DNA from: a virus
Length of the DNA stretch: 10,034 nt
Direction: 5' to 3' (one strand)
UHGV virus genome: UHGV-0283685
The notes beneath the pieces are model-generated. The model was not told the origin of the DNA. It was given only the letters and a program-made list of their open reading frames with translations, and searched no databases. Shown here piece after piece: positions 181-10,034 of this stretch. Both the position numbers and the translations under genes were made by a program. The stretch's first letter is position 1. Every line of letters starts with the position of its first letter.

Positions 181-2832
181 TTACACTCCTGATACTTCAA
201 TAGATAGTTGAATCTTATTTGGCATCTTGTTGCTTAAATATATGGTTGCAAAGTCAAACGAAATATTTAAGTTATTTTCATCACCATCATTATCTGAAAG
301 AACTCCGGTTTTCAATACAACATTTTGCTTATTAATTTCTTTTAAAGGAGAAAAATCAATTGCCTCACCACGATGAATAAGAACACCAACTGCAACTACC
401 CCATGAATATCAAGTATGTCGTGCATATCAAGGCGAACACATGGGACGTATCCACCAACAAGGATACTTGTAGATTTGTTGGCTTCAAGTGTTATTAGAT
501 ATTTTCCGTCTGGTTGAACTATTGTTCCTGCTATTCCATCTGGCGTGTTGAACATACCGCAGTATCTGTATCCTGCTCCAACAGGAACAATTCTGTTACC
601 GCCAAGATCATGGAAATTTCGAACAATTATTGCACCAGGAACTGATGAATAAACCATTACTGCCTCTGTTTGCCCTGATACAGAGTCTGATGTTTCTGGG
701 TTCGCCATGCATAAATTACCACCAAAATAAATATTTTGGATTAGAGGGGTGAGGCCATCATTAACCTCAAAACGTAAAAAGCCCTTGAGAACAGTCCTTG
801 CGGTATTATTCTTAATAACAACAGGAAGTTCTTTATAGTAAGAGTTTCTGTCTGTCTGTGCCAGAGTTGTTTCAATAAAAACAAAAGGTCTGTGATTACG
901 TTGAGTTGCATTCACAGGTTTGTACCTCAAGTTGTATGGCAAAGACATCTCAGTAAAACCATCAATATAATTACAGTTCTGAATCGTGAACCCACCACCA
1001 CTATATCTTACAAAAAAAGGAGCCGGTCCGCTAAATCCCCTGGCGTTCATTCCATCATACACTTCATTTAATCCGCGTATTACACCAGCATAATACAAAT
1101 TGACTGAATTGCCGCCTGTAAAAGTTGTTTCGTATGATGGGCCGTGTCCACCGCAACATGAATTTCTTGTATCGCCATCAGGGAAAAATTTAACTCCATC
1201 ATATGCAGTTCCACCACCCATCATCGTTGGATTTATAATGTTATTATACAGTGATACCATTTGAGTCCCGCTTACATCAAGCCCCCTCCTGCAAGCAAAT
1301 GCTATCATATCCACGACTGTGCAATAGCTGCTATTGTATATTTCAACACCATAACCAGTGCCGTTTGTTAAATCATATGCACGGTTTGAGTATTCAATAT
1401 ATGGCTCTATTATTTTCGTTCTGTAGCATGACTCAAGAAAAATTCCAGTTTCTGAAAAGCCGATTAGTTTTATTCCTTCTATATGCATATCAACAGCGCC
1501 ATCTATCACAAGACCACGGAACCCCAAATCACCAGGAGATGCGTTCTGCGTGACAGGTCTTTCAAAATTGAAATCACCGACAATTCTGCCGTAGCATGGT
1601 TTTCTTTTATATATATTTGCCTTTCTTGTGATTTTAAACACGTCTCCAACAGATGGTTTAAACGGGAATGGTCCCTGAGCATATTCAAATTTTGCTGTTT
1701 TAGTGTCGTAATCCCAATGAGTTATGTATCTTGATATTCCGGCGTTAGCTCCGGTGACACCTGTTACTTTTACCTGATTGTATTGTTTTGTTAATGTTGC
1801 ATCATTACCAAATGAGAATTCACCTCCGGATACAGATGCTGTTACGGTCGTTGAGTAATCATTGCTCGCAGAGTAGAAAAAATAAAATGCACCTGATATC
1901 TCCGCTTTTTTTGTTGCATTATCAAAAGCAGTAACAACATGCATTTCACCTTCACAAGCCTGTCCTCTATTATCTGTCTGAATTAAGCGATTGCCATGAA
2001 TCATAATTATATCGCCTGCATCAACAGAATATGCTGAGTTAATTGATATTGATGTGTCACCAGGATTTATTGTTGAATTATAGTCAATTGGCGTGGCATC
2101 TCCACCTTCGAGTCTTATGAAATAATCATCAATCCAGTTTGGACCAAGAGGCTCTTTTGCGGTTGACTTTAAGACAACCTTGCCATCAGCTACCCAGTCA
2201 TAGTTATAATTATCCCCGCCGCATTTTATGCGGCTAATCAAATACACACCAGAATCCCACTTCAGGCGTTTTCTGTTAGATGCGCAGTAAATGATGGCAT
2301 TTGTTATTGCGTATGTATCGTCAGTAATGCCATCCCCTTTTGCACCAAAATCGCGAACATTTACATGGTCATCAAGTTTATCCTGTAGCGTCCTTTGTGT
2401 TGCTCCGTCTACTTCTTCTGGAAGACCGTACTTATAATTTATAATTGATGGAGTTGAACCATTGTTAAACTTATTCTCTAGTTCTTGTTTAAACTGATCA
2501 GGATCATATTTCAGAATGTTTGGAAAATAGAACTGCTGCGCCCCATAAGCATCGTAAACAGCCATAGAATGGCCTTGCACGGTTACGAATTTGGCAATCT
2601 GTCCGTTATATACCGGATATCCAGCAGCGTTAATGATGATTGGTTGCGAAACAGGAACGTGAGAACCGTCTTCGTTCTCCACATAAACCTGAATCTGGTT
2701 TTCAGGATTTACCGGGTCAGTGTCAATTTTTCCGATATAAATTTTGCCATTGGCTACGGCTTTAAAAGAACGAGCCATAGTGAAGAGTTGCGAAGGCATC
2801 GATACGATCACATTGGCTGTAATGTCTGTCAT
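181..2832 (-). CDS. Tailspike protein: P22 gp9-like N-terminal head-binding domain fused to a long, different receptor-binding region (883 aa)
   Basis: N-terminus [11 protein letters not shown]...[37 protein letters not shown]...[15 protein letters not shown]...LKYDPDQ closely matches the recalled P22 tailspike N-terminal domain; the remaining ~770 aa does not resemble P22 gp9. ATG at 2830-2832 with GGAG 8 nt upstream; stop TAA at 181-183. Confidence 0.9.
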
Positions 2833-2964: not shown

Positions 2965-3222
2965 ATGATGTACAGCAAATACGATGAGGCGCAGTTCCAC
3001 TTGAGGCTTACGCACGAGTTGCACGCTAAGATTAAGCAGCGTGCAAAAATGAATAACAGGTCTATCAATTCCGAAATTGTGGCTACGATGGAAGAATCAC
3101 TCTCCAAACCATCACCTGTAAGCGGGTATCGTGATGAAGAAGAGAGGTTGGCCTCATTAATCTCGGAGCGAGTAAAAGAAGTTGCGGCTGATATCCTTAG
3201 AAAAGAAAAAACCCGCGATTAA
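2965..3222 (+). CDS. mnt: Mnt-like ribbon-helix-helix repressor, second paralog (85 aa)
   Basis: FHLRLTHELHAKIKQRAKMNNRSINSEIVATMEESLSKPSPVSGYRDEEERLA aligns along most of its length with recalled P22 Mnt (…NGRSMNSELLQIVQDALSKPSPVTGYRNDAERLA…). Start moved from the track's TTG at 2884 to ATG 2965, which has GGTGAGG 5 nt upstream and gives an N-terminus of Mnt-like length. Stop TAA 3220-3222. Confidence 0.75.
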   Translation: MMYSKYDEAQFHLRLTHELHAKIKQRAKMNNRSINSEIVATMEESLSKPSPVSGYRDEEERLASLISERVKEVAADILRKEKTRD

Positions 3223-3230
3223 GCGGGTTT
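3211..3230. terminator. Bidirectional intrinsic terminator between convergent genes
   Basis: GC stem CCCGC (3212-3216) / GCGGG (3223-3227) with loop GATTAA, flanked by AAAAGAAAAA upstream and TTT downstream. The U-tract is stronger for minus-strand transcripts. Sits between the Mnt-like stop (3222) and the 73-aa ORF stop (3237). Confidence 0.6.
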
Positions 3231-3236
3231 AGTTGG

Positions 3237-3458
3237 TTAGTTATCAAAAAGTCCGTACGTTTCTTCTTCTTCAGGTGTAAGGGGAAGAATCTCTACTCTA
3301 TCTATAGATATCTTTTCAATGTACCCATGAGGTCTACTTAAAATTAAAGCTCTCTCATGCCACAGAACTCCAAGAATGTGATACCTTCCAGCATCGCCTT
3401 TTACCCTGGCTCTTCCTTTGATTCTTGGCGGCATAATGCCATATTTTTTCTTTGCCAT
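3237..3458 (-). CDS. Hypothetical basic protein (73 aa), translationally coupled to the upstream gene
   Basis: ATG at 3456-3458 overlaps the upstream stop as TAATG. N-terminus is Lys/Arg-rich (MAKKKYGIMPPRIKGRARVKG). No own SD within normal spacing. No family recognised. Confidence 0.5.
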   Translation of the reverse strand: MAKKKYGIMPPRIKGRARVKGDAGRYHILGVLWHERALILSRPHGYIEKISIDRVEILPLTPEEEETYGLFDN

Positions 3459-4186
3459 TATGCAACATTACTCCCATGAATCAGGTGTTGTAGTGCTTTA
3501 ACACCTTCCTCATTGTAGCGGAATGCTTCCACCTGTTTGCTGGAATGCGCAGATTTATCCAGGAAGAACTTCCCGTACTGCTCAGTTTTGAGGTTGTTTG
3601 CGTTAGCAATGCGACCAATCTTGTTGGCCGTTACTCCAAGCTGCTCTGCAACCTCCCCTGCTGAGTAGTAATGCTCTTCTATTGCTGGAAGAGGTATTGC
3701 ATTAAAACCAACGATCGGGTTGATTATGCTTGCTGCCGCAGTCTGCTTTGCTTCCGGCGCAAGATTTGGCATCAAATCGAACAGATTGGTAACAGCTTCA
3801 ACCGTCATTTTCAATGTTCGCGCCTGGCGATACTCAACAAGTCCACTAGACGATTTACCGCTTTTAATGTGCGCTTCTTGCATACTTTCAAGTTGGTCTA
3901 CAAGTGAGCGGCGAACAGCTTTAGATTCACGAGCAGCCACTCGAAGGGCTTGCTTAATTGACATAACAACTTTTTCAGAAGTTGTCTTGTTTGATTTTTG
4001 AACTACGAAAATTTCGTAGTGCTCACCTTCAAGTTCATCCTTAATGCGTGCAATAAAGTCGTTATTGCGGACTTCTTTTTCCCCGCACTGTCTACGAGCA
4101 TGATTGACCATCTCTAACAGGTACTGGCTATCAATGGTTTTATCCGTGACAACGGATCCGATGTTTGCTACATTCTTAAAAGTCAT
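3458..4186 (-). CDS. Phage antirepressor/regulatory-like protein with C-terminal KilA-C/ORF6C-type HTH-like segment (243 aa)
   Basis: C-terminal YSAGEVAEQLGVTANKIGRIANANNLKTEQYGKFFLDKS...GVKAL has the look of the DNA-binding C-terminal domain of phage antirepressors. Start set at ATG 4184-4186 (AAGGAA 6 nt upstream) rather than the track's GTG at 4237, which lies inside a terminator hairpin. Confidence 0.65.
   Translation of the reverse strand: MTFKNVANIGSVVTDKTIDSQYLLEMVNHARRQCGEKEVRNNDFIARIKDELEGEHYEIFVVQKSNKTTSEKVVMSIKQALRVAARESKAVRRSLVDQLESMQEAHIKSGKSSSGLVEYRQARTLKMTVEAVTNLFDLMPNLAPEAKQTAAASIINPIVGFNAIPLPAIEEHYYSAGEVAEQLGVTANKIGRIANANNLKTEQYGKFFLDKSAHSSKQVEAFRYNEEGVKALQHLIHGSNVA
4146..4174 (+). 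promoter_or_regulatory. Candidate antisense promoter (sar-like copy 2)
   Basis: -35 GTGACA (4146-4151), 17-bp spacer, extended -10 TGcTACATT (4166-4174), located just inside the start of the minus-strand gene at 4186. The motif TTTGCTACATT nearly matches TTTGCTACAAT at 4885-4895. Confidence 0.35.
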
Positions 4187-4255
4187 TAGGCATTCCTTAT
4201 GTGGTAGTAAGGGTGTGACATAGGCCGCCAGCAGCACACTGGCGGTTTTCTTTTT
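4181..4255 (+). ncRNA. Candidate sar-like antisense RNA 2 (about 75 nt), complementary to the RBS and start codon of the antirepressor-like gene at 3458-4186
   Basis: Predicted start about 7 nt after the -10. Ends at a strong plus-strand intrinsic terminator: stem 4224-4231 / 4239-4245 (7 bp), loop CAGCACA, then TTTTCTTTTT (4246-4255). On the minus strand the same hairpin lacks a U-tract. Confidence 0.35.
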
Positions 4256-4274
4256 GCGCCGTCCGGCGCACCAA

Positions 4275-4901
4275 TCAATGAATCCATTCCTCGCCGCGCA
4301 GTTTTGCCAGCATTGGCTGAGCGTTCTTTACGACAAAATTGTTGGTATCAAGATTCTTCATTTCACGAAGAAGTGATTTCTTGGTTTCTTCTGACATGTA
4401 GCGAGTCTCATATGCAATATCGTAAATCCTTCCTGAAAGCTCAGAACCAATTTGCTTCATTCCTGGGTAGATGTGTTTGCACATTTGTTGACTCTTCTCC
4501 ATCCACAATTGTAAGTAGCAGAGATTAACCAGTTCTTCGTCAGTAAACTGTTTTGCAATCGGTGAGCATTCTGCCTGCCGATCCAAAATATCCAGCACCC
4601 AGCGGCGGAACTCTTTGGCTACCTGAGTGCGAGCAAACATCGCGATTAGGTGGGCACCGCGTAGTGAGAAAACACGCACTTTTTTACGATAATTTCCTGA
4701 GGTACTCACTTCGAGTACCTGAGTCATTCCGGCGCTAAACTCATCGCTATACTTGTTATAAATCATTGTTACTGCACGACTATTTGCGTATTTAAGTGCA
4801 GATGCAATATTAGATGATGTAAACCAAACACCATGCATATCACGGGTGGGCACCAATTCAACTCCGTGGAAGTTGTAATCTGATTTTGCTACAATATTCA
4901 T
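4275..4901 (-). CDS. ant: Antirepressor with Bro-N domain (Ant-like, 208 aa)
   Basis: YNFHGVELVPTRDMHGVWFTSSNIASALKYANSRA...LIAMFARTQVAKEFRRWVLDIL fits the Bro-N fold pattern. It sits directly downstream of arc, as ant does in P22. Start set at ATG 4899-4901 (AAGGAA 6 nt upstream) rather than the track's 4985, which overlaps arc. Confidence 0.75.
   Translation of the reverse strand: MNIVAKSDYNFHGVELVPTRDMHGVWFTSSNIASALKYANSRAVTMIYNKYSDEFSAGMTQVLEVSTSGNYRKKVRVFSLRGAHLIAMFARTQVAKEFRRWVLDILDRQAECSPIAKQFTDEELVNLCYLQLWMEKSQQMCKHIYPGMKQIGSELSGRIYDIAYETRYMSEETKKSLLREMKNLDTNNFVVKNAQPMLAKLRGEEWIH
4887..4895 (+). promoter_or_regulatory. Candidate Psar-like antisense promoter (extended -10)
   Basis: TGcTACAAT (4887-4895) on the plus strand, immediately next to the ant start codon (4899-4901). 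No convincing -35. Confidence 0.35.
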
Positions 4902-4976
4902 GTTAGTTTCCTTGCATACGGTTACTGACATAGAGGCCCGGTTTGTGTTCACGCACTGCCGGGCTTCACTATTTTT
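4902..4976 (+). ncRNA. sar: Candidate Sar-like antisense RNA (about 75 nt), complementary to the ant RBS and the arc-ant intercistronic region
   Basis: Position and orientation match what is known for P22 sar (a small antisense RNA of about 68-69 nt from the arc-ant intercistronic region). Plus-strand hairpin GGCCCGG (4935-4941) / CCGGGC (4959-4964) followed by TTCACTATTTTT (4965-4976). Confidence 0.4.
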
Positions 4977-5148
4977 ACTGGGCATTAGCTCTTTCCTCTC
5001 TCAGGCTTTTAGCCAGTCGCTGCACAATCGCAGAGTTGATAGAAATTCCATCCATTTCAGCAACACGTCTAATCTCCTCCTTCATTCGCGCTGGCAAACG
5101 AAGCTGGAAACTTTGACTTTTACGACCTGTGTAAAGCACATCTTTCAT
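4975..5148 (-). CDS. arc: Arc-like ribbon-helix-helix repressor (57 aa)
   Basis: SFQLRLPARMKEEIRRVAEMDGISINSAIVQRLAKSLREE aligns with recalled P22 Arc (QFNLRWPREVLDLVRKVAEENGRSVNSEIYQRVMESFKKE). Start set at ATG 5146-5148 (GGGAGAA about 6 nt upstream) rather than the track's GTG at 5161-5163. Stop TAA 4975-4977. Confidence 0.8.
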   Translation of the reverse strand: MKDVLYTGRKSQSFQLRLPARMKEEIRRVAEMDGISINSAIVQRLAKSLREERANAQ

Positions 5149-5169
5149 AAGTAATTCTCCCACAATGAT

Positions 5170-5223
5170 ACCAACTTGGTTCTAGAACCAATTTAACACC
5201 ATTTATTTTGATGTCAAGTTGGT
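5170..5223. promoter_or_regulatory. Operator cluster: 16-bp perfect palindrome TTGGTTCTAGAACCAA plus extra TTGGT/ACCAA half-sites
   Basis: Perfect palindrome at 5176-5191. Overlapping palindrome ACCAAcTTGGT at 5170-5180. A further caagTTGGT at 5215-5223 overlaps the -35. All lie between the divergent arc (-) and Mnt-like (+) starts. Confidence 0.55.
5190..5217 (-). promoter_or_regulatory. Candidate Pant-like promoter for arc-ant
   Basis: On the minus strand: perfect -35 TTGACA (plus 5212-5217), 16-bp spacer, -10 TAAATT (plus 5190-5195). Predicted start falls inside the 16-bp palindrome. Confidence 0.5.
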
Positions 5224-5259
5224 GCTATTGTTTAGCGAACATCTTTACGTTGAGGTCAT

Positions 5260-5580
5260 ATGAGCAAGTTCCCTAGTCATGAAATGGATAGGTTCAATAT
5301 CAGGCTTCCTGCAGGAATGCGGGATGCTATAGCTGAACGAGCCAAACGTAACGGCAGATCAATGAACTCAGAGATTGTTCAGATACTGGAAGATGCCTTG
5401 AATGCAGAAAATACACTCGGGGAAATAGCAGATAAAATCAACAGCGTCTCGGTTCCGCTAAATGTTGATGCGCTAGTTCAACTTCAAGCCCAGGTTATCG
5501 CCATGCAAAAAGAAATACAGGAAAAGTTCAGAGAGCAGAACGAAAAGTTGAGAGAACTGCTAAACAAAAAAACCACCTGA
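5260..5580 (+). CDS. mnt: Mnt-like ribbon-helix-helix repressor with C-terminal coiled-coil, divergent from arc (106 aa)
   Basis: RFNIRLPAGMRDAIAERAKRNGRSMNSEIVQILEDAL closely matches the recalled P22 Mnt RHH region (RAEANGRSMNSELLQIVQDAL), and the C-terminus ends KKTT as Mnt does. The C-terminal half is heptad-like (LVQLQAQVIAMQKEIQEKFREQNEKLRELL). ATG 5260 with GAGG 4 nt upstream. Occupies the mnt position opposite arc. Confidence 0.8.
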   Translation: MSKFPSHEMDRFNIRLPAGMRDAIAERAKRNGRSMNSEIVQILEDALNAENTLGEIADKINSVSVPLNVDALVQLQAQVIAMQKEIQEKFREQNEKLRELLNKKTT

Positions 5581-5606
5581 CGGTGGGTTAATTTTTGCCT
5601 TTTTTG
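5572..5606 (+). terminator. Candidate intrinsic terminator after the Mnt-like gene
   Basis: Stem CCACC (5573-5577) / GGTGG (5582-5586), loop TGAC, followed by GTTAATTTTTGCCTTTTTT. The stem is short (5 bp), so this is only moderate. Confidence 0.45.
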
Positions 5607-5678
5607 GACCATATTGACTACTCATAAAATGAGATCAATATTTAATCGCCCAATAACGGGTGCATGTTGAGGTATATC

Positions 5679-5858
5679 ATGGCGAAAAAACCAGGTGAAA
5701 ACACAGGAAAAAACGGCGGAATATACCAAGAAGTTGGCCCGCGCGGAGGTAAGAAAGACAATTTTGCCACCGTCAAGGACAACGAAAGGCTTCCGCCAAC
5801 AACAAAGCCAGGTCATGGCTGGGTATTAGATAAGCGAACTCCAGACAGCAAAAAGTAA
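5679..5858 (+). CDS. Small hypothetical protein (59 aa), possibly YjzC-like
   Basis: ATG 5679 with GAGG 6 nt upstream (the track's 5664 start lacks an SD). MAKKPGENTGKNGGIYQEVGPRGGKKDNFATVKDNERLPPTTKPGHGWVLDKRTPDSKK is Gly/Lys/Pro-rich. The pattern KPGE..G.NGGIYQEVG...G...LPPT...G..W resembles the small YjzC-like proteins as I remember them. Candidate promoter upstream: TTGACT at 5614-5619. Confidence 0.55.
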   Translation: MAKKPGENTGKNGGIYQEVGPRGGKKDNFATVKDNERLPPTTKPGHGWVLDKRTPDSKK

Positions 5859-5864
5859 TAATCA

Positions 5865-5886
5865 AGCCGGGTCACTCCGGCTTTTT
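5865..5886. terminator. Bidirectional intrinsic terminator between convergent genes
   Basis: Stem GCCGG (5866-5870) / CCGGC (5877-5881), loop GTCACT, then TTTTT (5882-5886). An A-rich run on the other side (5851-5865) serves the minus strand. Overlaps the stop (5872-5874) of the 121-aa gene. Confidence 0.5.
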
Positions 5887-6237
5887 GATATGTCGCTCGC
5901 AGAACTCAACAAGCCTGCTCATTAAGTAGCAGTAAGTCTCGTTGGCTCTTCCTGGTTCAACATCAACGCCGACCCTTGAGCAGATATCGAATGCCATGTG
6001 AGCGCACTCATGGGCAATAGTAGATAGTTTACCATTGAACACACCTATCACATGCAAAACACCATTCTCGCTGCTCATTGTATGAGACGCTCCGTTGGCA
6101 TCCGAGTCCTGCACGTCCACGCCAAGTTTTTGATGCAGGCGTTGCCATTCTGGAAAGTCTCTGCAAAACACAATTGTACCGCTCTCAAAGAGCGGAACGA
6201 GCATTTTTGGTACGTTTCCAATGTTAACTTTTTTCAT
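5872..6237 (-). CDS. Hypothetical protein with HExxH zincin-like motif (121 aa), possibly a minimal metallopeptidase
   Basis: Uninterrupted 122-codon frame with ordinary coding composition. ATG 6235-6237 with AGGA 4 nt upstream. Contains STIAHECAHMAFDI, with several Glu residues 14-30 aa downstream that could supply a third zinc ligand. No family assignment possible without a search. Confidence 0.6.
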   Translation of the reverse strand: MKKVNIGNVPKMLVPLFESGTIVFCRDFPEWQRLHQKLGVDVQDSDANGASHTMSSENGVLHVIGVFNGKLSTIAHECAHMAFDICSRVGVDVEPGRANETYCYLMSRLVEFCERHIKKPE

Positions 6238-6267
6238 GGTATCCTGCTCAAAACTAAGGAGGTTGGT

Positions 6268-6495
6268 GTGAAGCGATGGTTCCTCATAATTACTGTTTTC
6301 GCGATCATTTACACTATTTTCCCTGCATTAAAAGCACCAATGCAAATAATTTCACTAGCAATAATTTCGATTAGTGCTTTCATTGCAGTAGCCGTACTTG
6401 TGTTTAAGGTTTTAAAGTTTTTAGTTTGGCTATCAAAAGATGATGGATGCAAAGTTCATCAAGAAAAAGAAGGCAAAATAACCAAAGTTGACTAA
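6268..6495 (+). CDS. Small hydrophobic protein with two predicted TM helices (75 aa), GTG start
   Basis: Strong SD AAGGAGG (6256-6262) 5 nt before GTG 6268. Two hydrophobic segments (WFLIITVFAIIYTIF and MQIISLAIISISAFIAVAVLVFKVLKFLVWL) then a charged tail. AT-rich. Its stop overlaps the gp16-like stop on the other strand by 3 nt. The track's N-terminal extension to 6052 is antisense to the 121-aa gene and was rejected. Confidence 0.5.
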   Translation: MKRWFLIITVFAIIYTIFPALKAPMQIISLAIISISAFIAVAVLVFKVLKFLVWLSKDDGCKVHQEKEGKITKVD

Positions 6496-8615
6496 CTGTC
6501 ACTAGCGAGCCATGTAATAATCCCCGTGCGGGCAATGGTTTTTGCTTCATCTGTTGATAAGGTTTTCTCCCATCTCTTAAATGCCCCAGATTGCATCAGT
6601 TTCCTTTCTATTGCGCGTCTCACTTCTGCTCTGTCTACTGGTGCGTTTTGCAGGCGAAATAGCATTGATTTAAACTCAGGAGAAGATAGCAGAGCATCAG
6701 CAGCCTTTATCCTGCTTGTTTTCCCTGACATCAATGCAGACGTTATCACCCCTGTTGCACCTACACCAGGGAGACCAGATAAGCTTGTAATACCTTCCGC
6801 CGCAGCAGCTTTTGAGGCTATTCCATAAATTTTTGCGAGACTACCCTTTTCTTTCAGAAAGTTATTAACTTGCTGATCCACAAGACTACTAGCATACTGC
6901 TTACCAGTATTGAGTCTATTCATAGCCTTAGCTGCTTGATAAATCGTATCAAGGCGCTTTGATGCATCTGTGCCAATAGCATCACGGAGAGCCTTCATAT
7001 TGGCCCCATTGCGTGACATTCCGTTATACCATTTTACAAATCCATCAACTCCTAATTGCTGACCAGGTGATTTGGCATAGCTGGTAAATGCTTTATTCAT
7101 TGAGGTGAGCGCAACTTCCTGCCGCATATCCTTTGGAATCGACTTCATTAATTGCCTAAAGTCGCCACCGTTTCCTTTTGCCATATTAACAACAGCACTT
7201 TCAACTTTTGGAATTGCTGATTGCTGAAGTTTTCTACCCAAGACGGTTACAGCATCATCTTCAATGGATTTTCGTTTTTTTACCAACTCCTTACCAAGCG
7301 TCCATAATTCCCCTGCGCCATATTTTTCTGCGACAGCCTGTTGGTCATCTGTTATGGCTGCATATAACTTTTTAAGAACACCTGTTTCTTCATCCTTGAA
7401 TGGACCAGAGCCTTTGCCAATAGCTTGTCCAACCTGCTTTCTAGCGAGATCTAAACGCCCATACGTTGGCAAGGTGTTTGGATCAAGTCGGTTCAATGTC
7501 CGCTTCATTATTGGAGATAATTCATCAATTCCACCTATGTCATCAGCAAAATCCTCTAAAAAATTCAATGTATTAGTTGCCTCAATCCGGTCTCTTACAG
7601 GAACCTTTTCGGCAATTTTGTTGTAGATGTTATCTGACTGATTTTGTAATGATGAAATGGTTTTATCAAAATTATCTGCAAGCCTGTCAGAAACCAGTTG
7701 CTTATCAAGGCTTCCCCCAAATGAAGTTATCATTTCATCAGCTTTTCTTCCTAATTCAGTAATAAAACGCTTATGCGCCTCACTAATCTCTGTTCCAGGG
7801 AGACTTGCCACTGCATTATCAAGAGCCCTGACAGCAGGATTATTAGAGATCATGCCTGGAGTGGCATAATTTTCCAGTTCTAGCTCACGAATAGCATTTA
7901 TCGCGTTAAAATCAGGATTAACTTCATCGGCGAAATCTTGAATAGCTCGTTGCCCGCCGATAAATTTATTGTCCATTGCGCCAGCAGCTTTCTTTAACGT
8001 TGCTTTAGATGATTTACTACCCATCCCTACGGATGAGCGATAAATATCTCCGGCACTATTTTTAATTTTTCCTGCAATCTTCCCAAGCGCTGGACCAACA
8101 ATCTCGGCTACAGGGCCAGCCACAGCGCCAATAGCAGCGCCGGAAGCAACATCGCTATTTGTTCCATTGGCTACAATAGCCCCTTCTCCAGCACCAAGCC
8201 CTGCGGCGGCAGCCAGCCTTGCCGCCCCTTTCGGAACCTGAGAAATAATCCCACCACCACTAACAAATGGCGCTGCTTGTCCAACGAACTCACCAACATC
8301 TTGTGCGGTTGATGGTTTTGCCGCTAACTTCTGCTGTAGAGACTGAATTGCGGCTTGCTCTTCTGGTGTCATGTCCTGAAACAGGCCAACACCTTTACCA
8401 ACATCCATCAATCCACTGAGAACGCCATACATAAAACGGTCGAAGCCGTTAGCATTATTAACAACATTTTCCTGTCTGGAATTTTCCTCTAGTGAAACCA
8501 AAGGAGATTGCTGCTGTTCTGGTTGTGCATCAAGCACAAAGCCATCAGGAAGCTGTGAGTTATCAGGCTGATTATCGAGAACAAATCCTTCGGGTAAACC
8601 TACATCGGTTGCCAT
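6492..8615 (-). CDS. DNA-ejection (injection) protein, P22 gp16-like (707 aa)
   Basis: Last of three consecutive late-operon genes just before the immI-like region, in the same order as P22 genes 7-20-16. ATG 8613-8615 with AGGAA 6 nt upstream, overlapping the upstream gene's stop by 16 nt. Gly/Ala-rich segments and an N-terminal tandem repeat. Assignment rests on synteny and size, not a verified alignment. Confidence 0.7.
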
Positions 8616-9943
8616 TGTCCGTTCCTATAAATGAGTTTCTGACCAGTTTTAGGGTTCGTTGCCGTCGCGCCTTCTGATATCCCACTTGGCGCAGCTTTTG
8701 TCTGCCCATTACCACCTTGTGGTGTAGGCTGCGCTGGGACATCGTCAAATAGCTTGGCCTTCCTTCTCCCTAAGCTTTTTTTCAGCCCTTGAGGAATAGT
8801 ATCTCCATACGTATCCAGATATTCGTCTACCTGCTGGTTAAACTGCTGCCCCATAGCGTTGGCGTTAATTTTGGCTGCGTTAACAATGTTATCCCTCGCT
8901 TCCTGTGACAAGCCATTCCCTGCATTAAGCTGGTCTACATATCCTTTTATCTGCCCCCATATGCCATCAGAGCGCATGACCTGAACCTGTTCACCTTCGC
9001 GAACAACTGACTGAGGGTCGAGAGACTTCATGTAATTAAAGATAATCCCAAGTTGGGCAGCGCCAGTATTTACCTTGCTAAGGGCTTGCAGAGAGTTTGC
9101 CGCCGCTCTGACAGAGTTATAATTTTTGCCAAAATTGGTAATATCAGAATTTAATCCCTTAATTAAGTCTGCTGACGGCTTACCTTTTTGCCCCAGCTCC
9201 ATTAGCTTCAATCCCATCTCATCTGAGTGCATTTGTGCCCGCTGAGCCCTGTCTAGTTGAGCATTTTGGATATTTGCCCATCCTCTCGCGTTCTCCATGT
9301 CAGCCTGACGGATGCTTTCATCCAATCGCCCTTTCTCAAGTTGGCGACCAACCATCTTATCCTGATAATCCAGCATTTTATCCGGACCAACAGCCCCTAG
9401 CGTCATAGTAGTCAGCATGTGTGATAGCTGCTCTGGATTCTGAATACCTGTCTGAATCATCCAGTCAGCATTAGCACCAACGCGATTTAACCTGTCCTTG
9501 TTGTCAGTAATGAATTTACTGTAGGCTTCCGGCCCCTGAGAAAGAGCGACGTTAGCCCTCATGGCTAAATCGCCCATATCGTTGCGTTGCTGATCATTAA
9601 GACCGGAAAACGCCTGTTGTGCCTGTGCAACAAACGCTGGATTTTCCTGGGCAAACTTAAATAGTCCCGATGGATCACCAGAAGCCCATGCATCAGCGTG
9701 AACCTTATTGAACGCACTAATAGCTTTCTGTTGCTGTTCCTGATTGTAAATATCAGCAACTCCAGCCAGACCACGTAACGCGGTCAGACCAACGTTATTT
9801 GCACCTGAGCGAGCCAGTTCATTGTTTTCGCGGATCAGACCAAGCGTTGCGTTAATGTCGCTTGCCTTTGGCGCATTCTCATTTTGCGCACCAATGCCAG
9901 CCAGAAAACCACCAGAATTAATACCCTGTTGCCACGTAGCCAT
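8600..9943 (-). CDS. DNA-ejection protein, P22 gp20-like (447 aa)
   Basis: Middle gene of the three-gene set (P22 gp20 is about 471 aa). Start set at ATG 9941-9943, 4 nt after the upstream gene's TAA, rather than the track's GTG at 9955, which lies inside the upstream gene. Gln/Asn/Ala-rich. Assignment by synteny and size. Confidence 0.7.
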
Positions 9944-9947
9944 TGAT

Positions 9948-10034
9948 TTACCCACGTCCAGTTAAAGTGTAAGCCAGCGCCTTATCCATTAATCCCCGAG
10001 CAATTTCGTGGATCGTTGGCGCAACTCCTACCTC
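9948..10034 (-). CDS. C-terminal fragment of the upstream late gene (gp7-like position), 28 codons plus stop
   Basis: Minus-strand frame is open from the window edge to TAA at 9948-9950 (…[28 protein letters not shown]), immediately followed by the gp20-like start. Identity inferred from position only. Confidence 0.4.

Follow-up and report, generated by a model that had tools for sequence, protein, structure and literature searches.

In P22-like phages, a hypervariable region termed the 'ant moron' has been described, through which late transcription continues into gene 9 (PMC2629481; PMC8022706), and 'hkcC, 59a' were named as genes of unknown function therein (PMC2629481). The superinfection-exclusion protein SieA, found in just 22 of 66 P22-like phages, comprises 162-200 amino acids (aa) with three or four transmembrane helices and a cytoplasmic FxRYPxEAxxFNK motif, its types being ~25% identical to one another, and the 85 base pairs (bp) upstream of sieA are enough for exclusion from a single copy (Leavitt et al. 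2024, PMC10883804). Here we analysed UHGV virus genome UHGV-0283685, of which the whole stretch of 10,034 nucleotides (nt) is hereafter called the window, and in it three small genes at the P22 sieA position, namely orf59a (5679-5858, plus strand; 59 aa), hkcC (5872-6237, minus strand; a cytoplasmic HExxH protein of 121 aa) and a gene for a 75-aa membrane protein (6268-6495, plus strand; phrog_7294).

On balance, we favour the reading that this segment is the left arm of an ant moron built of three exchangeable units, in which the 75-aa product would act as an exclusion protein, HkcC as a late zinc peptidase, and orf59a as a self-contained moron. The most useful new points are that the sieA slot appears to be a socket for at least 11 unrelated envelope proteins, that hkcC probably encodes a late minimal zinc peptidase, and that orf59a appears to be autonomous, its signals being conserved.

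The segment corresponds to the left arm of a P22-like ant moron

Window positions 5564-6270 were 97.3% identical to phage P22, in whose annotation this stretch includes sieA, PsieA and t-mnt. The gene for 59 aa is P22 orf59a, and the HExxH protein is 100% identical to that of HK620 hkcC, a gene that is present but unannotated in several P22 records. HK620 has an equal layout, i.e. gene 16, hkcB, hkcC, a 'bidirectional terminator tORF59A' and a possible 'HkcD', the latter corresponding to orf59a. Since P22 and HK620 carry two of the three genes and the ant moron has been published, the island is a known hypervariable region; it forms the left arm of the 'ant moron' in a P22-like prophage resembling that of E. 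coli 55989. An earlier note on this DNA had pointed out three genes of alternating orientation at a location matching the P22 superinfection-exclusion gene, both of which were confirmed; the accessory island that it described is not new. RefSeq has the same three gene calls in a 100% identical E. coli 55989 stretch (WP_001085430, WP_000757526 and WP_000832790), all 'hypothetical', and the proteins of orf59a, hkcC and the 75-aa gene matched PHROGs of unknown function (E = 7e-31, 1e-39 and 1e-47, respectively). Pfam, NCBIfam and PADLOC scans of the three yielded nothing above threshold, and none of them was placed by the profile searches in a characterised housekeeping family, in keeping with the accessory character that the earlier note had proposed.

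The left border of the segment coincides with a terminator-like hairpin (5573-5586, both strands; stem CCACCTGACGGTGG) that has T-runs on both strands and lies directly 3′ of a gene for a 106-aa Mnt-like repressor of the Arc family (5260-5580, plus strand; Pfam Arc, E = 1.6e-20). Its folding energy is -8.3 kcal/mol (z -1.5 by shuffling), and its HK620 equivalent is annotated as tMNT. Because the P22 homology starts at 5564, the hairpin marks the left mosaic junction, and the Mnt-like repressor, being just 39% identical to P22 Mnt, likewise places a mosaic junction at the mnt 3′-end.

In related phages, orf59a, hkcC and the 75-aa gene were each found to be replaced independently. The three are independently exchangeable transcription units and not one functional unit, and they are joined by short conserved linkers, namely the hairpin 5573-5586, a terminator at 5864-5883, a block at 6237-6270 and the gp16 stop codon. 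Thus, of the compact accessory cassette described earlier, the accessory genes at the sieA position stood, but the single cassette did not, as each gene is exchanged separately at the linkers. In EC.P3 (locus L002, 3196-4656), genes for a SocA/Panacea-domain protein, a 140-aa protein and a ClpP-like protease replace hkcC/orf59a.

When examined for the hallmarks of morons, all three genes were variably present among otherwise syntenic relatives, as is typical of genes outside morphogenesis. Base composition deviates in the 75-aa gene, with 33.8% GC versus 43% in the window, in line with its AT-richness stated in the earlier note, and shows no deviation in orf59a and hkcC (47%). As to signals of their own, orf59a is preceded by a promoter-like site that is conserved and followed by a strong terminator, and the slot gene, i.e. 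the gene at the sieA position, has the conserved block and the annotated PsieA, with no predicted terminator. A strand opposite to the operon is not seen for hkcC, which is co-oriented with the late operon.

A near-invariant 34-nt block precedes unrelated cargo genes in the sieA slot

The linker at 6237-6270 (plus strand) is a near-invariant block of 34 nt, TGGTATCCTGCnnAAAACTAAGGAGGTTGGTGTG, that would provide the promoter, ribosome-binding site (RBS) and start of the 'sieA slot'. By alignment it is the same in the window, P22, epsilon34 and EC.P3 except for the marked position in TGGTATCCTGCnCAAAACTAAGGAGGTTGGTGTG, and its end is the start codon of differing genes, i.e. the 75-aa gene (twice), sieA and an hkcB-like gene. 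It contains an extended -10-like TGnTATCCT (6237-6245), a Shine-Dalgarno AAGGAGG (6256-6262) and the start codon GTG (6268-6270). The block was located upstream of every cargo type in 80 hkcC-selected loci, its pattern was matched by at least 120 IMG/VR contigs, and isolated 35-55-bp matches to it occur in many E. coli genomes. Judged from these sequence features, the block is the putative expression platform and recombination junction of the 'sieA slot'.

Promoter signals were considered on both sides of the divergent starts. At the start of the block, TGGTATCCT may be read as an extended -10 element, which would explain why the block is retained in EC.P3, whose sequence further upstream is unrelated. 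The putative PsieA annotated in P22 (P22-pbi, locus L001, 3645-3675) aligned with one mismatch to 6207-6237 (plus strand), within the first 31 nt of hkcC. A promoter consensus scan returned three sites versus 2.6 expected, no better than chance, so that the promoter claims rest on conservation and on the P22 annotation. The divergent starts of the membrane and HExxH genes, ATG on the complement of 6235-6237 and GTG at 6268, are 30 bp apart as the earlier note had given; its corollary that the two promoters lie inside each other's coding sequences stood for the membrane gene, whose PsieA is within hkcC, and fell for hkcC, which is co-oriented with the late operon and needs none.

Two samples of loci were used for the cargo of the slot, i.e. 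80 IMG/VR contigs chosen via hkcC at ≥99% identity, in which the gene behind the block was classified (sample 1), and 80 contigs chosen by the block alone from at least 120 block matches (sample 2). Sample 1 contained 11 unrelated cargo families behind the block: a 161-aa lipoprotein (17 loci), SieA and a 129-aa signal-peptide protein (11 loci each), two families of 109-aa proteins composed of an anchor and a coiled coil (10 loci for the first and 8 for the second), the 75-aa hairpin of the window type (8 loci), a 106-aa protein (5 loci), a 62-aa protein (4 loci), and proteins of 68, 99 and 149 aa (2 loci each). Again 11 families were found in sample 2, 10 of which, covering 72 of 76 loci, are hydrophobic near the N-terminus, where the Kyte-Doolittle maximum reaches 1.77-2.92, the maxima of all other genes of the window being ≤1.31. 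SieA alone among the slot cargoes has a known function, and the remainder are PHROGs of unknown function. The opposite flank of the block in sample 2 has hkcC in 26 of 80 loci, an epsilon34-gp15-like lipoprotein gene in 21 of 80, and something else in the rest.

Given that nearly all cargoes have a signal peptide or a membrane anchor, the slot appears to collect envelope proteins that protect the lysogen. It is possible, although we put it forward tentatively, that the block is a portable expression socket for at least a dozen unrelated envelope genes, each a distinct exclusion or defence device, and that the 75-aa hairpin is a new and minimal device, not related to SieA, which blocks DNA ejection at the inner membrane. 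If true, the socket would account for the genes that stand in for sieA in the two-thirds of P22-like phages lacking it. The at least 11 unrelated and almost entirely uncharacterised envelope proteins that share the sieA position and its signals make up a testable panel of exclusion and defence candidates, for which the single-copy assay established for SieA is directly usable.

In a P22-like prophage of the Morganella type (locus L014, 6662-7015), a gene of the Rap1a family (type VI secretion immunity) was observed between an hkcC-like gene and gp16, a hint that defences located in this region may be directed at bacterial toxins and not just at phages.

The 75-aa protein is a candidate exclusion protein of the inner membrane

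The 75-aa gene starts at GTG 6268, 5 nt after AAGGAGG and at the same position as P22 sieA; an extension of the open reading frame (ORF) to 147 aa from ATG 6052 (6052-6267) runs antisense through hkcC, is unconserved and has no RBS, so GTG 6268 is the real start. As noted before, its stop overlaps that of the gp16-like gene, TAA at 6493-6495 against TAG on the complement of 6492-6494. The predicted protein has two hydrophobic helices (residues ~4-21 and 25-55), a short KAP loop, a charged C-terminal tail of 20 residues, and a hydrophobicity maximum of 2.85, and is probably a two-helix hairpin in the inner membrane with both ends in the cytoplasm. It has no similarity to P22 SieA (BLASTP, E = 3.8), and in PADLOC it matched '4TM effector' only at E = 0.068, orf59a and hkcC having no match there.

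Homologues of the protein were found in Escherichia and Salmonella only, at 83-95% identity. Across 14 alleles of the gene, 15 polymorphic sites are nonsynonymous and 9 synonymous. No allele has a broken ORF, the 9-nt duplication present in one of them being in frame. The commonest allele (88% identical, in more than 1,100 assembly blocks) is not preceded by the block but is the last gene of a co-directional mnt-92aa-186aa-75aa array that abuts the 707-aa gp16 stop and lies downstream of the lysogeny-expressed repressor mnt. The 92-aa, 186-aa and 75-aa genes of this array may be a second membrane-protein operon. Its 186-aa protein (locus L117, 3412-3972) has a coiled coil and a C-terminal membrane helix, with a weak CCDC90-like match. 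The 75-aa gene always abuts the 707-aa type of gp16; an exclusive linkage of the two was rejected, as a 97% identical gp16 also occurs with the 99-aa cargo, and the link is physical.

As it shares the sieA expression block, the 75-aa gene should be made in the lysogen, and standing behind the sieA expression signals makes a role in exclusion or envelope defence plausible. From its sequence and context, this gene is best read as one that defends the envelope when expressed from the prophage, most likely by superinfection exclusion; the protein would act at the inner membrane and hinder the DNA entry of incoming phages, as SieA does. Exclusion is the best-supported guess from position and analogy, and one that we would place somewhat short of an even chance.

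hkcC encodes a probable minimal zinc peptidase on the late strand

The HExxH motif of HkcC is HECAH at residues 76-80. A profile search collected 547 clusters of the family at E ≤1e-3, nearly all stand-alone proteins of 110-130 aa, and the family is almost entirely phage-borne. In an alignment of 60 members at 23-44% identity, H76, E77, H80 and E100 were the sole invariant columns; E100 follows the second His by 20 residues, a thermolysin-like spacing, and thermolysin was the best PDB sequence match, a marginal one. The AlphaFold model is zincin-like and confident (predicted local distance difference test, pLDDT, 89; predicted template modelling score, pTM, 0.83) and has the order strand, strand, helix, strand, strand, HExxH helix and Glu helix. 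Zincins were among the top matches of the fold search, with ImmA/IrrE-type proteins at low score, and the neighbours in the BFVD viral structure library were uncharacterised phage proteins, a few of which are named SprT-like. Weak matches to the SprT-like profile PF10263 were present in 12 of the 60 relatives (best E = 1e-4), the gathering score not being reached and the HkcC protein of the window being unmatched; it was also unmatched by Peptidase_M78 (PF06114, ImmA/IrrE), which hit one of the 60 family members at E = 0.099. Based on the invariant HExxH and E100, the thermolysin spacing and the confident model, we call HkcC a probable gluzincin-type zinc peptidase of a not-yet-curated family, its catalysis being predicted from these features.

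Compared with homologues in other phage backbones, hkcC showed a nonsynonymous divergence (dN) of 0.30-0.48 with saturated synonymous sites. It lies on the strand of genes 20, 16, arc, ant and 9. The homologues at 62-63% identity adjoin the tape-measure gene among the tail genes in long-tailed prophages of Klebsiella oxytoca, Xenorhabdus and a metagenome, and those at 38-42% (phage L/ST64T Orf129, epsilon34 gp70, Kluyvera and Citrobacter) have the lysis genes on one side and dec or terminase on the other; all are co-oriented with the late genes and none keeps a repressor neighbour. Since the divergent neighbour is swapped for unrelated genes, an hkcC promoter within it could not be conserved; the economical source of hkcC mRNA is therefore read-through from the late promoter, and its position on the late strand suggests that it is most likely made in this way in lytic growth and acts late. 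In this scheme HkcC would act late on a host or phage substrate. The hkcC transcript is necessarily antisense to orf59a.

The proposal in the earlier note that the HExxH protein acts on a repressor is unlikely, in view of the late strand, its company in the long-tailed prophages, which is orf59a and not a repressor, the lysis-terminase position of the distant relatives, and the lack of a meaningful Peptidase_M78 match.

orf59a is a probable self-contained unit of the extended YjzC family

The orf59a protein, the 'HkcD' of HK620, is basic, Gly/Pro-rich and highly conserved, with homologues of 60-80% identity across Enterobacterales and environmental Pseudomonadota. It matched YjzC (PF14168) with 19.4 bits, below the cut-off of 25 (E = 0.0013); its homologues at 41-49% identity carry PF14168, and those at 76-80% are named 'YjzC family protein' by their sources, so that it probably belongs to an extended YjzC family. 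Its model is a three-stranded beta-sheet with no informative PDB neighbour, and the PDB sequence search gave chance matches.

The gene is preceded by a GAGG Shine-Dalgarno 6 nt upstream of the start and by a sigma-70-like promoter (TTGACT, 17 nt, AATATT; 5614-5642, plus strand), whose function is predicted from conservation: TTGA of the -35 element and A.TA.T of the -10 element are invariant in six contexts, including P22-like phages, long-tailed prophages and Pasteurellaceae, between which synonymous sites are saturated. It is followed by an intrinsic terminator common to the convergent orf59a and hkcC (5864-5883, both strands), annotated as 't mnt' in P22 and 'tORF59A' in HK620. The terminator has a folding energy of -12.6 kcal/mol (z -3.6), with 0 of 200 shuffles as stable, its stem covaries in other contexts, and it overlaps the hkcC 3′-end and is used as a junction in recombination. 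For orf59a, the comparison with other phage backbones gave a dN of 0.12-0.27 with synonymous sites saturated, and distant copies occur solo on prophages and integrative elements, each with a terminator of its own. Thus, orf59a would be a self-contained moron comprising a putative sigma-70-like promoter, the gene and a terminator. Lying on the strand used in the lysogen, it would be made in the lysogen.

In the 5′ leader of orf59a, a hairpin (5647-5662; also in loci L013, L095, L106, L110 and L112) varies in stem sequence and stays pairable (z 0.08); it is not claimed as a structure, being no more stable than shuffled sequence. A canonical YjzC gene was seen 18 nt after a pair of AAA ATPase and S8 peptidase genes and before RadC on a relaxase-bearing element (locus L115, 676-4952), and another orf59a-like locus (L108, 1-1094) also has an AAA and S8 pair nearby.

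For hkcC and orf59a, unannotated in P22 and HK620 for more than 20 years, these results offer a first functional handle. No functional study was found in the literature on orf59a, YjzC, hkcC and phage zincins, and no gene-level data on orf59a, hkcC and the slot gene were found in a published P22 RNA-seq study.

Weighing the alternatives

Several points weigh against the reading that we favour. The 75-aa protein has no homology to any characterised exclusion protein, and it has neither the three or four helices of SieA nor its FxRYPxEAxxFNK motif. Purifying selection on its gene is weakly visible, the ratio of nonsynonymous to synonymous divergence (dN/dS) of 1.6 between two N-terminal variants being uninformative with ~14 changes. 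One cargo family in sample 2 (140 aa, MFGILTRSKIKKLRAEL...; four loci) is soluble and has no hydrophobic segment, which together with the Rap1a gene of Morganella suggests that the slot may serve envelope functions beyond phage exclusion. In addition, strand and signals are the basis for placing the expression of hkcC late and that of orf59a and the slot gene in the lysogen.

Alternatives in which the genes function jointly take two forms. The three genes could be one compact defence cassette, in which a membrane effector of exclusion or abortive infection is combined with an HExxH protease cleaving a repressor or a host target; they are tightly packed beside the immI repressors, HK620 has an analogous trio, and the repressor-cleaving proteases of the ImmA/IrrE type, to which hkcC has low-score fold matches, are HExxH proteins as well. 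However, EC.P3 and the commonest S. enterica/E. coli arrangement have the 75-aa gene but lack hkcC and orf59a, the latter two are also combined with 10 other slot genes, hkcC has neither a repressor link in the long-tailed prophages nor a meaningful Peptidase_M78 match, and none of the three proteins has a PADLOC match above threshold, which makes the cassette very improbable. Alternatively, hkcC and orf59a could be a functional pair, e.g. a late protease and its lysogen-expressed substrate, inhibitor or antagonist, made mutually exclusive in time by convergent transcription. The convergent pair with its shared terminator is kept on three backbone kinds in all, i.e. in P22-like prophages of Escherichia, Salmonella, Morganella and Proteus, beside the tape-measure gene in the long-tailed prophages of Klebsiella oxytoca, Xenorhabdus and a metagenome, and after the replication genes in a Pasteurellaceae prophage; synonymous sites are saturated between these contexts, so the linkage is old. 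A solo-orf59a locus retains a truncated hkcC remnant, and the minus-strand hkcC transcript must run antisense through orf59a up to the terminator 5586-5573. Among 11 genome-collection loci, the hkcC homologues at 63% and 46% adjoin orf59a, but no orf59a lies beside the 38-42% group, a truncated Moraxella match (48%) or a degraded Arsenophonus copy (55%). Against a pair, orf59a is absent from ~12 of 80 and 5 of 26 P22-like loci with hkcC >90% identical (some 15-20%), where the breakpoint is inside the shared terminator and a 74-aa two-helix membrane gene (MISAILSVLL...; loci L015/L016, 4380-4604) takes its place, both families are found far more often alone than together, and the convergent arrangement does not resemble that of known operons for toxin-antitoxin or protease-inhibitor pairs. 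An obligate pairing was rejected on account of the P22-like loci with hkcC but without orf59a, and a functional pair of any kind seems to us unlikely.

Two further alternatives concern the 75-aa protein. Instead of excluding phages, it could be another kind of envelope protein, namely a factor of lysogenic conversion or an orphan immunity protein that protects from a membrane-acting bacteriocin or a secretion-system toxin. Immunity proteins are typically small membrane proteins with two helices, the cargoes of the slot are diverse, including lipoproteins, periplasmic proteins and membrane anchors, and a Rap1a-family immunity gene stands in the equivalent region of the Morganella prophage. On the other hand, the 75-aa protein has no similarity to any immunity family in Pfam, NCBIfam and PADLOC, the sole slot gene of known function is an exclusion gene, and the 75-aa gene always adjoins the ejection-protein gene, so we regard this alternative as quite unlikely. 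It could also be a membrane toxin of the holin-like or type I kind, causing abortive infection, as the earlier note had offered, or prophage stabilisation; like class II holins, it combines small size and two helices with a C-terminal tail that is charged, and it has the faint PADLOC match to '4TM effector'. We rate a toxin as highly improbable, because the gene is placed behind a strong Shine-Dalgarno and the sieA promoter block, from which SieA is expressed constitutively without harm, there is no evident partner in the form of an antisense RNA or antitoxin, and the ORF is intact throughout the more than 1,100 assembly blocks; abortive infection found no support. A class II holin was rejected in particular, for the shape fits but the gene lies outside the lysis cassette and has no holin PHROG or Pfam match.

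Neighbouring genes of the window

To the right of the segment, the minus strand encodes a gp16-like ejection protein of 707 aa (6492-8615; phrog_6704 and phrog_770, 'DNA transfer protein') and a gp20-like ejection protein (8600-9955), for whose equivalents in related loci the Pfam family Inj_translocase was found. To the left, the secondary-immunity region (2968-5580) is doubled, with two Arc/Mnt-like genes, one Arc, two different anti-repressors and a 73-aa gene: the second Arc/Mnt-like gene (2968-3222, plus strand) is followed on the minus strand by the 73-aa gene (3237-3458), the second anti-repressor (3458-4237, phrog_1726), the anti-repressor Ant (4275-4985, Bro-N and P22_AR_C) and Arc (4975-5163), and then by the Mnt-like gene. 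At the left end of the window lies the tailspike gene (181-2832, minus strand; 883 aa). The 99.76% identity of the window to the E. coli 55989 prophage begins only at 2494; the head-binding end of the tailspike (2494-2832) is common to both, and its receptor-binding part (181-2493) is unmatched in that prophage. As the receptor-binding part differs, the window would come from a relative with another O-antigen specificity. An Rfam scan of the window returned nothing real.

Comparison with known systems

The closest counterpart of the 75-aa protein by position is P22 SieA (types A-C), with which it shares the slot between genes 16 and 9, the start position and the upstream promoter/RBS block, both being integral membrane proteins and prophage accessories. 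The two differ in family (phrog_7745 for SieA versus phrog_7294), length (162-200 versus 75 aa) and number of helices (three or four versus two). In size and helix number it may be likened to T4 Imm and HK97 gp15, small exclusion proteins of one or two helices that infected cells or lysogens produce and that stop DNA from entering at the inner membrane, a likeness that is by analogy only.

With the minimal zincins and gluzincins, i.e. thermolysin-type enzymes, minigluzincins, SprT-like proteins and ImmA/IrrE, the HkcC model has in common the HExxH helix, the Glu helix and a small packing sheet. The orf59a protein has the length of the YjzC-like PF14168 proteins and their core G-x-Y-Q-E-V-G-P-R-G-G ... 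L-P-P-T ... P-G, and is connected to them by a continuous chain of homologues; as the YjzC family is itself of unknown function, this membership says nothing about the mechanism of orf59a.

As a whole, the segment has the same architecture as the left arms of HK620 (hkcB-hkcC-'HkcD') and P22 (sieA-hkcC-orf59a) (Clark 2001; Villafane 2008), that is, a slot gene, a divergent hkcC, a shared terminator and a convergent orf59a. Compared with these arms, hkcC is 100% and orf59a 98% identical, whereas the slot gene of the window is the 75-aa hairpin in place of hkcB or SieA, and the Mnt and gp16 types on its two sides differ.

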